Shown in pieces: positions 10,950 through 11,418 of a stretch of 64,000 bases of DNA. Position 1 is the first letter of the stretch. Every line of letters begins with the position of its first letter. The translations under genes were made by a program, and so were the position numbers. The DNA is taken from assembly GCA_964480105.1 (NCBI GenBank), contig CAYZPX010000001.1, positions 18,163 through 82,162 of the forward strand, given 5' to 3'. The DNA comes from an uncultured Burkholderiaceae bacterium (lineage in GTDB: Bacteria; Pseudomonadota; Gammaproteobacteria; Burkholderiales; Burkholderiaceae_C). The notes under the pieces are model-generated. The model worked only from the letters and a program-made list of their open reading frames with translations. It searched no databases and had not been told where the DNA came from.

Positions 10950-11059
10950 CCATCACAGAAGCGTGCAGGTGCTGATCTCCTGCTTTTGGCTATCCGAGGC
11001 CGTAGCTGCCAAACGGTCGCTGCGTGCGCATCAGCCTGCGCATTACGCTTCTGTGATGG
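10950..11059 (-). ncRNA. structured RNA module 1 (unassigned family)
   Basis: Closing helix 10950-10963/11046-11059 (14 bp). Hairpin GCAGG-TGCTGATCT-CCTGC. Insert hairpin TTTGGC...GCCAAA. Hairpin TGCGCA-TCAGCC-TGCGCA. Strand inferred from the promoter, the tRNA sense and the GNRA loops. Confidence 0.55.
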
Positions 11060-11132
11060 CCCCCGTCTTTCCGGGGTGTCCGTGGCTTAGGGTATATGCC
11101 ACGCCGTCATAACGCTACGGCCCTTCCCAAAC

Positions 11133-11289
11133 GTGATGGTGGCCGGTGCTGATTTCCGGCATTGGTTCATCGGCGTCCGCCAGCTTTCGCTGGAACGTTG
11201 GCATCGCCAATCCGCTTTCGCGTCGAAGGTAATCCTTCGCCTGACCCGTGCTTGCCTTACTGCGCGTCAGCCCGCGCATTCACCATCAC
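11133..11289 (-). ncRNA. structured RNA module 2 (unassigned family)
   Basis: Closing helix GTGATGGTG/CACCATCAC. Hairpin GCCGG-TGCTGATTT-CCGGC. 100-nt insert with two hairpins that are GAAA tetraloops on the minus strand. Hairpin TGCGCG-TCAGCC-CGCGCA. Confidence 0.55.
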
Positions 11290-11418
11290 AGAACAGGGCC
11301 GGTGCTGATCTCCGGCTTTGGTCTAGGCTGTCGGAGTCGAACCGATAAGGGCACCATTGGCCGACCAGCCTAGAGCCCCGCCTTGCGCGTCAGCCCGCGC
11401 ATTCCTGTTCTGTGATGG
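11283..11418 (-). ncRNA. structured RNA module 3 (unassigned family) with a nested tRNA-like minihelix
   Basis: Closing helix 11283-11297/11404-11418 (15 bp). Hairpin GCCGG-TGCTGATCT-CCGGC. Insert 11322-11374 has a 7-bp acceptor-like stem plus GGTTCGACTCC. Hairpin TGCGCG-TCAGCC-CGCGCA. Confidence 0.55.

Follow-up and report, generated by a model that had tools for sequence, protein, structure and literature searches.

What is encoded by three tandem, cloverleaf-like units that lie close to the repressor gene of a phage? The question is raised by a 64,000-nucleotide (nt) stretch of DNA from an uncultured Burkholderiaceae bacterium (GenBank assembly GCA_964480105.1, contig CAYZPX010000001.1; the whole stretch is called the window below), which is a lambdoid-type prophage or phage of about 60% G+C. 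The units occupy positions 10947-11420 and are read in the minus-strand sense. An earlier note, made from the sequence alone, had described here three modules with a closing helix, two hairpins and a variable insert, and had compared their connectivity with that of a tRNA. All the stems and loops that it listed are present, as found by direct reading and with a repeat finder. The results described below make it almost certain that the units belong to a real, conserved family of structured RNAs read from this strand. The family is large and so far unannotated, its structural solution is unusual and its distribution is remarkably wide. As to function, we give slightly better than even chances to the interpretation that the units are structured RNA genes of about 115-160 nt with a tRNA-mimicking scaffold, which would be excised like a tRNA and would carry a variable effector arm.

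On the minus strand all three units have the order 5'-P1-AAU-P2-variable arm-AA-P4-P1'-3', in which P1 is the closing helix and P2 and P4 are the hairpins named B and A, respectively, in the earlier note. This architecture bears out the tRNA-like connectivity proposed there. The two or three linker nucleotides before P2 (AAU) are conserved and rich in purines. P2 has the stem GCGCR/YGCGC and the 6-nt loop GGCUGA, P4 has the stem GCMGG/CCKGC and the 9-nt loop ARAUCAGCA. The units, located by the repeat finder, a structure scan and folding, and the accompanying hairpins, located by the repeat finder, are the following (bp, base pairs):

11283-11418, minus strand: unit 3, first in the transcript
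11404-11418 with 11283-11297, minus strand: P1 helix of unit 3, complementary at 15/15 positions
11384-11401, minus strand: P2 of unit 3, loop GGCUGA
11317-11383, minus strand: variable arm of unit 3, 67 nt, containing the T-loop hairpin UCGG-UUCGACU-CCGA
11298-11316, minus strand: P4 of unit 3, loop AGAUCAGCA
11132-11290, minus strand: unit 2
11281-11290 with 11132-11141, minus strand: P1 helix of unit 2, 10 bp including one U-G
11261-11278, minus strand: P2 of unit 2
11161-11260, minus strand: variable arm of unit 2, 100 nt, with two GAAA tetraloop hairpins
11142-11160, minus strand: P4 of unit 2, loop AAAUCAGCA
10947-11063, minus strand: unit 1, last in the transcript
11045-11063 with 10947-10964, minus strand: P1 helix of unit 1, 18 bp including G-U; 15/15 over 10950-10964/11045-11059
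11025-11042, minus strand: P2 of unit 1
10984-11024, minus strand: variable arm of unit 1, 41 nt
10965-10983, minus strand: P4 of unit 1, stem GCAGG/CCUGC, a compensatory variant of GCCGG/CCGGC
11438-11453, minus strand: accessory hairpin GGUCG-GAAAGA-CGACC, 5' of unit 3
11061-11076, minus strand: accessory hairpin CCCCG-GAAAGA-CGGGG, 5' of unit 1
10778-10862, minus strand: long imperfect hairpin with 21-nt arms, 86% complementary (10778-10798 with 10842-10862)

The insert lengths of 41, 100 and 67 nt, the GAAA tetraloop hairpins of unit 2 and the two extra hairpins (loop TCTTTC as first read, on the opposite strand) are thus as originally described, and the end of the 3' arm of unit 1 was corrected from 11060 to 11059. 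The full-length P1 helices of units 2 and 3 are mutually exclusive because both use 11283-11290. If unit 2 is closed, unit 3 retains about 7 bp of its P1, and the units then abut like adjacent tRNAs. Two suspected degenerate copies did not hold up: nothing unit-like was found at 10926-10944, and the one placed at 10781-10859 is the imperfect hairpin listed above, which has no P2 or P4 and was not recovered in the structure-only scan of the window. Its arms are similar to P1 of units 1 and 3, and its 43-nt interior contains a small hairpin of its own. Lying between unit 1 and a tRNA-Arg gene, it could represent the decayed remnant of a fourth unit, or else be a structured spacer in its own right.

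A chance origin of the units was excluded by scanning the window for structure only and by folding. The scan asked for a 6-nt-loop hairpin and a 9-nt-loop hairpin closed off by a helix of 6 bp or more; loop sequences were free, except that positions 4-8 of the 9-nt loop had to be complementary to the first loop. In the 64 kb it returned exactly units 1-3 in this region and two weak matches elsewhere, whereas shuffled windows gave 0.3 matches each. The two other matches (24700-24889 and 30570-30798, both on the minus strand) have unrelated loops and a 6-bp closing helix, lie inside long open reading frames (ORFs) and are most likely due to chance. Folding z-scores were -5.9, -2.1 and -5.85 for units 1, 2 and 3, respectively. 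RNAfold reproduced the junction for units 1 and 2, the minimum-energy fold of unit 1 being a four-way junction; for unit 3 the program, being unable to draw pseudoknots, rendered the complementary loop sequences as a nested helix.

The same architecture was found in many other phages by a combination of regular-expression scans, structure scans and pair counting. In IMG/VR, exact patterns of the P2 or the P4 hairpin matched at least 120 contigs each. Both patterns occurred on one strand, 48-177 nt apart, in 39 loci, and all 39 have a P1 helix, which was not part of the query. With slightly relaxed loops 96 distinct units were collected from 101 loci. Altogether, the architecture is present in at least 101 IMG/VR contigs and in 261 cultured-phage records, the latter obtained in a BLAST search with the scaffold only, in which 132 of the 261 matched over at least 80% of the scaffold. 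The most frequent host genera of these records are Klebsiella (76), Pseudomonas (63) and Escherichia (54), followed by Salmonella, Burkholderia, Erwinia, Enterobacter and Aeromonas. Carriers include phage P1 (with an identical copy in NC_005856 at 69807-69957), HK633, HK629, Stx2-converting phages, D3, the N4-like phages IME11 and ZC03, and the BASEL phages Bas77-80. The subtype of the phage Stx2a_WGPS2 is found, at 95-100% identity, in 846 of 5,426 complete Escherichia coli genomes (about 16%), mostly in the chromosome and in 237 cases on plasmids; the best matches listed have no annotated feature beneath them. Nowhere in the database records are the units annotated as RNA, and hypothetical coding sequences (CDSs) are often laid over them. 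Phages that otherwise have nothing in common share one 116-nt unit at 94-96% identity, and the similarity ends at the unit borders. The window is the sole sampled locus with three tandem units, and a few IMG/VR loci have two matches. Conservation across phyla, which a genome scan with the 19-nt P4 hairpin seemed to offer, was rejected, as only about 8 of 120 matches were real units, all in Proteobacteria (Pseudomonas, Stutzerimonas, Xanthomonas, Stenotrophomonas, Pseudocitrobacter and Pelagibacterium). The remaining matches have no P2 and P1, and our guess is that they are coding matches, since their reverse strand reads P-V-L-I-S-G.

Covariation was assessed in a 92-sequence scaffold alignment (A1) made from the 96 distinct units. 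Pair counting was used instead of a covariance model because the 25-161-nt insert is located between two stems, a position in which the local ends of Infernal do not accommodate it. Changes on both sides were observed for 9/9 pairs of P1, 5/6 pairs of P2 and 3/5 pairs of P4; the compensatory stem changes noticed within the window are thus matched by covariation of all three helices in relatives. Paired cells made up 92% of the alignment, compared with 28-45% when the 3' partners were slid, and none of 500 shuffles reached the observed values.

The two conserved loops had been proposed to form a kissing contact. In A1 this contact is invariant because the sequences had been selected through their loops. 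A variant set was therefore collected from IMG/VR by scanning for P2 hairpins with a loop altered at the third or fourth position, so that the relatives were chosen only by a non-canonical P2 loop. Compensatory double changes were found in the partner loop. Bona fide units with the P2 loop GGUCGA, which have six unrelated P1 sequences, carry the P4 loop AGAUCGACA or close variants; GGUUGA goes with AGAUCAACG, or with AGAUCAGCA via a G-U; and GGCCGA goes with AGAUCGGCA or GGAUCGGCG. The kiss thus exists as GCUGA/UCAGC, GUCGA/UCGAC, GUUGA/UCAAC and GCCGA/UCGGC. In a second alignment (A2), in which 98.9% of the cells are paired, kiss pair 20-47 is CG in 26, UA in 9 and UG in 2 sequences, and pair 21-46 is UA in 26 and CG in 11. 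Pseudomonas phage CF23a has a GUCGA/UCGAC kiss on nearly the same arm that is combined with GCUGA/UCAGC in the E. coli phages Bas80 and IME11, which amounts to a natural compensatory experiment. Accordingly, a 5-bp Watson-Crick kiss is predicted between G-GCUGA in the loop of P2 and ARA-UCAGC-A in that of P4; it would stand in for the D-loop/T-loop elbow of tRNA. The earlier note had called the loops invariant, but across the family they are not, since both covary. Covariation of the loops is stronger evidence than their invariance, and the support for the family is comparable to that of curated Rfam families.

Several observations identify the minus strand as the sense strand, as the earlier note had supposed. 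Of the 37 tRNA genes neighbouring units, 36 are co-oriented with the P2-to-P4 reading direction; they occur within 3 kb of 19/96 units (20%). Four of them begin 5-7 nt after P1, and the spacing is 5-10 nt in five loci. In the window, where the sense read from the minus strand agrees with the strand of tRNA-Arg (ARAGORN and Rfam scan by E-value), terminators flank the unit array on that strand. At loci L046 and L021 the U-tract of a terminator immediately precedes the unit, and at L046 the unit is directly followed by a terminator of its own. The helices contain 59 G-U but only 15 A-C pairs, a count with a slight ascertainment bias, as the filters permitted G-U. T-loop hairpins with covarying stems were found in 5 of 91 variable arms (0.36 expected), one of them in unit 3 of the window, and GNRA tetraloop hairpins in 22 of 91 (11 expected). 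Variable-arm lengths have no three-nt period; any open frame at all is present in just 31/96 units, and two thirds are closed in all frames. The co-orientation, the terminators, the excess of G-U, the arm motifs and the closed frames argue for a transcribed, folded RNA and neither for a DNA site nor for a protein gene.

The part of the molecule enclosed by P2 and P4 is extremely diverse: variable arms span 25-161 nt and are of unrelated sequence and shape. Nevertheless, arms of one type may share 88-96% identity across phages of Escherichia, Klebsiella, Enterobacter and Pseudomonas while the P1 helix and the kiss differ, which suggests that arm modules may have been exchanged between scaffolds. 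One such type, GGGACGUGGCUGACUCA...GCUCAAGCGAAUAAGCAAGCUCGA..., is common to loci L222 (Bas80), L223 (IME11), L224 (CF23a) and L087. Siphoviruses, N4-like podoviruses and temperate Pseudomonas phages share this type at 88-96% identity, and it holds a second GGCUGA that is unchanged when the kiss changes.

The genes and signals surrounding the units in the window are as follows:

13113-13814, minus strand: cI-like S24 repressor gene
11903-12655, minus strand: DUF1828 gene
11864-11882, minus strand: intrinsic terminator closing the cI/DUF1828 operon
11766-11794, minus strand: sigma-70-type promoter-like site TTGACT-17-AATAAT, 10/12 matches, just downstream of the cI/DUF1828 terminator
10567-10643, minus strand: tRNA-Arg, anticodon UCU (ARAGORN; Rfam tRNA 56.1 bits)
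10541-10558, minus strand: intrinsic terminator GCCCAC-CCCUAA-GUGGGC followed by U7, just after tRNA-Arg
6413-7429, minus strand: RecT gene
4780-6459, minus strand: RecE/YqaJ exonuclease gene

Read along the minus strand, the terminator is followed by the promoter-like site, which is the only one within 10300-12100, a leader of about 340 nt, units 3, 2 and 1, the long hairpin, tRNA-Arg (in the orientation of the units, about 300 nt downstream of unit 1) and the second terminator. We infer from this order that the three units and tRNA-Arg may form one self-contained noncoding operon of about 1.2 kb, which would head the early-left region. The layout resembles the C1-controlled ban operon of phage P1. 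The -35 hexamer lies within the inverted repeat CCTAT-N11-ATAGG in an AT-rich stretch (11766-11830), and this repeat may be the operator mentioned in the earlier note. None of the eight ORFs crossing 10634-11765 has a Pfam or PHROG match. One of them, a 77-codon ATG ORF at 11323-11556 on the minus strand, would encode a basic product. A strong Shine-Dalgarno sequence precedes its start (GGGAGGAAACAACC-ATG), the frame extends into unit 3, and its position is that of N in lambda.

The phage of the window has no close cultured relative: its best RecT match, to Ralstonia phage RSK1, is 57%. BLAST of the whole 1.26-kb unit region against INPHARED gave no match, and no relatives of the neighbouring DUF1828 protein were found in IMG/VR. 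G+C content falls to 0.48 at 36001-37000 and to 0.52-0.53 at 7001-9000, against about 0.62 elsewhere in the window, and the ORFs 7484-8401 and 13873-15093 have no family matches; such stretches and ORFs may be morons or recent cargo.

Phages keep the element in three settings, the first two of which emerged from clustering of the neighbouring ORFs. In the first (22 loci) it follows a cI-like repressor gene in the same orientation, often with RecT next (9 loci, median distance 56 nt), at the head of the early-left operon; the window, Stx2a_WGPS2 (just after cI) and CF23a belong here. In the second it is in a late leader, upstream of an endolysin (11 loci), terminase (7) or HNH gene (7). In HK633, for instance, about 520 nt separate PR'/qut from the unit, and the holin gene lies beyond it. 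Thirdly, virulent or plasmid-like phages (ZC03, IME11, Bas80 and P1) have it in their tRNA arrays. In ZC03 the unit starts 10 nt after tRNA-Arg and takes one place among the ten tRNAs of an array. The unit of Bas80 is paired with tRNA-Met in a small island surrounded by tail genes that run on the other strand. In phage P1 the order is C1-controlled P1ban/P2ban promoters, dicF-like region, tRNA-Asn, tRNA-Thr, unit, tciABC, tRNA-Ile and ban. The families that recur among the neighbours are cI, RecT, endolysin, terminase, HNH, CII and Rha; no transposase, integrase or Rep gene was recurrent in this clustering. The three settings are the usual places of tRNAs and small RNAs in lambdoid and other phages, and the element thus behaves as a tRNA-like accessory gene.

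In the phage P1 reference the unit is covered by the CDSs plp and upl, which run opposite to the ban operon (NC_005856 69472-70041; locus L426 866-1435). As plp overlaps tRNA-Thr on the opposite strand, both are probably spurious ORFs laid over noncoding RNA genes. CRISPR interference against plp and upl was scored as non-essential (PMC10695390), which fits an accessory gene. Two further observations concern these loci. The immunity region of Stx2a_WGPS2 carries, besides the unit and about 2.4 kb from it, an IsrK-family RNA (L347, 26-102, minus strand; 67 bits, above the gathering score). In ZC03, an unannotated 327-nt gap in the tRNA array contains a hammerhead-like core, CUGAUGAG ... CGAAAC ... 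GUC (L424, 620-672), which matches Rfam Hammerhead_3 with 21.2 bits (E = 0.038) and thus does not reach the gathering score; the array has another unannotated gap at 1176-1409.

How might such units act? In the interpretation favoured here, the three units and tRNA-Arg would be transcribed together from the cI-proximal promoter of the early-left region to the intrinsic terminator. RNase P would cut at the 5' base of P1, and the 3' end would be trimmed to an A-C-C-A-like tail by the enzymes that mature the neighbouring tRNA. Excision by the tRNA machinery is proposed because P4 abuts P1, because the borders are at tRNA-like distances and because four positions in the 3' flank of the P1 helix are biased to A-C-C-A: CCA is present at -2 to +6 of the P1 end in 30/86 units against 9 in the upstream control, and no matching UGG was found upstream. 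The conserved scaffold would provide stability and recognition by a conserved host factor that handles tRNAs, while the variable arm would be a lineage-specific effector, such as a decoy, a protein sponge or a base-pairing module. The benefit would come early in infection, in an accessory role like that of phage tRNAs. For tRNA-like excision and the scaffold role we regard the odds as even; any specific effector role of the arm is doubtful at best. A more elaborate version, which seems to us improbable, would make the units a class of tRNA mimics, in which a universal scaffold is bound by a conserved host tRNA-handling or tRNA-targeting protein and a hypervariable arm serves as an anti-defence decoy or inhibitor. 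The units would then act beside phage tRNAs against anticodon nucleases, PARIS, retron Ec78-type effectors or nucleotidyltransferase toxins, or, alternatively, in another form of host takeover. If this were true, the three arms of the window would be a small arsenal fired first from a repressor-controlled early promoter.

A number of observations weigh against the favoured interpretation. The association with tRNA genes, seen within 3 kb of only 20% of the units, is frequent but not obligatory, and CCA follows P1 in only about one third of the units. ARAGORN and the Rfam model RF00005 do not recognise the units, and in the window ARAGORN finds only tRNA-Arg. P1 usually has 8-10 bp, and 16-20 bp or more in some lineages, among them units 1 and 3 of the window, in contrast to the 7 bp of a tRNA acceptor stem; likewise, the P4 loop has 9 nt and the T-loop of tRNA 7. 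The units have no complementarity longer than 13 nt to the window, hence no obvious antisense target in cis. Finally, the search patterns came from the loops of the window itself, so that divergent members are under-sampled and pairing percentages are biased toward the model, although P1 and the P4 loops of the variant set were unselected.

Among the alternatives, the one that survives best is a trans-acting antisense RNA of the phage P1 c4 or phage P4 CI type, that is, a cloverleaf cut by RNase P out of an early leader, whose loops or arm would pair with phage or host mRNAs. Its placement in repressor-proximal early leaders, its closing helix with an ACCA-like tail and, in phage P1, its position in the ban operon beside a dicF-like small RNA region would all suit such a role, and the 88-96% conservation of arms between genera, while P1 and the kiss pairs differ, suggests that the arm sequence matters. 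On the other hand, the conserved loops pair with each other and covary, and are hence occupied inside the molecule and not free for a target. Complements between the units and the rest of the window are of 11-13 nt only, which is the chance level, with no target of at least 14 nt; Rfam gives no C4 or IsrK match on the units; and the element is also found in strictly virulent phages and in late-gene leaders. We consider this explanation, in which the pairing would block translation or bring about termination, unlikely. Regulation of this kind is conceivable for the variable arm and is at odds with the conserved loops.

Somewhat further down the scale, and rather unlikely in our opinion, is a leader element acting in cis, either as a put-like antiterminator for reading past the tRNA-Arg terminator or as a stalk for RNase III/RNase E processing or stability of the polycistronic early or late transcript. 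In lambdoid phages the units come directly after PL-like and PR' promoters and ahead of a terminator, no N-like gene is recognisable in the leader of the window by Pfam and PHROG, and P1 helices of 16-23 bp, as found in some lineages, are of a size suitable for RNase III. However, put consists of two stem-loops arranged as a V, without a closing helix or kiss (PMC9378689), HK633 possesses Q and qut and hence needs no RNA antiterminator at that place, the unit and tRNA-Met island of Bas80 has no downstream operon, and in ZC03 and phage P1 the unit is one item of a tRNA array. Three tandem copies with different arms would also be unnecessary for a function in cis. Most P1 helices have only 7-10 bp, and the flanks beyond the perfect helix are complementary in about 15% of the units. 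An extended RNase III-like stalk was examined separately and rejected: forced-hairpin pair counts did not differ from those of shuffles, and duplex energies indicated significant extension in only 13-17 of 95 units.

A function at the DNA level, as a miniature mobile element, a recombination or att-like site or a single-strand origin with hairpins formed in the DNA, is very improbable. Although the closing helix resembles terminal inverted repeats and the 116-nt unit shared by unrelated phages looks like a cassette with sharp borders, the units are not flanked by target-site duplications and have no transposase, integrase or Rep gene as a recurrent neighbour. Their orientation is strictly tied to tRNAs and terminators, the G-U pairs are in excess on one strand (see above), and T-loop and GNRA motifs are enriched in the arms. 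That the structure is incidental to a small early protein gene, such as the ORF 11323-11556 or ORFs like plp and upl, has hardly any probability left, in spite of the good Shine-Dalgarno sequence (GGGAGGA) before the start at 11556 and of the hypothetical CDSs often annotated over units, because compensatory changes affect four helices including a pseudoknot-type kiss, the inserts have no triplet period, stops occur in every frame in two thirds of the units, the ORFs have no Pfam or PHROG match, and the CDSs annotated over units vary from record to record and run on either strand, plp even overlapping tRNA-Thr. Both of these readings are rejected on the strand and RNA evidence.

The family places an unannotated structured RNA in model and medically relevant phages (P1, HK633, HK629, D3, Stx2-converting, N4-like and BASEL phages) and points to a blind spot in phage annotation, in which hypothetical CDSs such as plp and upl of phage P1 are drawn over RNA. 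As the units travel with phage tRNAs and first-transcribed leaders, finding out what they interact with could uncover an additional level of phage-host conflict or of early gene control. Tractable systems exist in phage P1, Bas77-80 and Stx lysogens, and the combination of a conserved scaffold and a swappable arm would be attractive for RNA engineering.

How do the units compare with known systems? The earlier note could not assign them to a family, and a scan of the window and five relatives with Rfam 15 (gathering score and E-value limits of 5 to 10) likewise gave no fitting match. A weak tRNA-Sec match (19 bits) covers the T-loop hairpin of unit 3 (11322-11374, minus strand), and the sole nearby Rfam match at a relative, isrJ with 30 bits in L046, was rejected as lying mostly on the downstream terminator. 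Full-text searches with the conserved sequences of either strand found no paper, and topical searches of the literature that could be searched gave no description of the element. Of further candidates, LUZ7 sRNA1-3 were rejected (the orf69-orf70 spacer lacks the element; PMC9163698), T5 Rad is a protein and not an RNA, and the Pas small RNAs are unrelated to the units. No tmRNA was reported by ARAGORN for the window or for any of 45 related loci, and variable arms of 25 nt, the lower end of their range, have no room for a tmRNA tag frame. A retron msr-msd shares the closing helix, but no reverse transcriptase is present among the recurrent neighbours or in the flanks of the window. Flanks of the units are inverted complements or unrelated, never the direct repeats expected for a miniature inverted-repeat element.

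HK022 put resembles the units in being a structured RNA just downstream of early lambdoid promoters, in phages without an obvious N gene. It has about 70 nt, is a V of two stem-loops that includes a short triplex, contacts the zinc-binding domain of beta' and acts in cis (PMC9378689). The units differ in being a multi-helix junction, whereas put has neither closing helix nor kiss and is not associated with tRNA arrays.

Among RNAs that accompany or imitate tRNAs, species 1 and 2 of T4 (rnaC and rnaD) are stable non-tRNA RNAs co-transcribed and processed with the phage tRNAs. T4-like phages are absent from the cultured-phage matches. YrlA RNAs, which according to Chen and co-workers (2014) are reportedly encoded by bacteria and some phages, have a long stem formed from both ends and a tRNA-mimicking domain, as the units do. 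They differ in having genuine T-loop and D-loop sequences and a Ro-binding helix and in adjoining rsr. No Rfam match to Y RNA or YrlA was obtained on the units, nor is rsr, Ro or RtcB among the recurrent neighbours.

Similar features are seen in c4 of phages P1 and P7 and CI of phage P4, small cloverleaf-like RNAs from early or immunity leaders, with paired ends and a CCA-like tail, which are reported to be RNase P substrates (Hartmann and colleagues and Forti and colleagues, both in 1995). Phage P1 has its c4 elsewhere in the genome. The loops of c4 and CI pair with sites in their target mRNAs, whereas those of the units pair mutually and covary, and the units also occur in virulent phages and late leaders. 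Neither C4 (RF01695) nor IsrK (RF01394) matched any unit at E-value limits of 5 to 10, and the detection of IsrK in L347 indicates that this model works on these phages. Repeated target sites for the unit loops were looked for as well, and no additional complement of at least 14 nt was found in the window.

The units also resemble tRNA itself. A closing helix formed by the two ends is followed by 2-3 linker nt, a hairpin, a central arm and a 5-bp hairpin that abuts the closing helix; the absence of a linker means that P4 can stack on P1 as the T-arm does on the acceptor stem. The loops of the first and the last hairpin would be joined by a tertiary contact, the 3' flank is frequently A-C-C-A-like, and phage tRNA arrays contain or adjoin units, which share the orientation of the tRNAs and are spaced like them. 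In place of an anticodon arm the units have an arm of 25-161 nt, and in place of the tertiary pairs between D-loop and T-loop they have a 5-bp Watson-Crick kiss of a 6-nt and a 9-nt loop, by which the elbow would be replaced in what may be a new solution to the tRNA fold.

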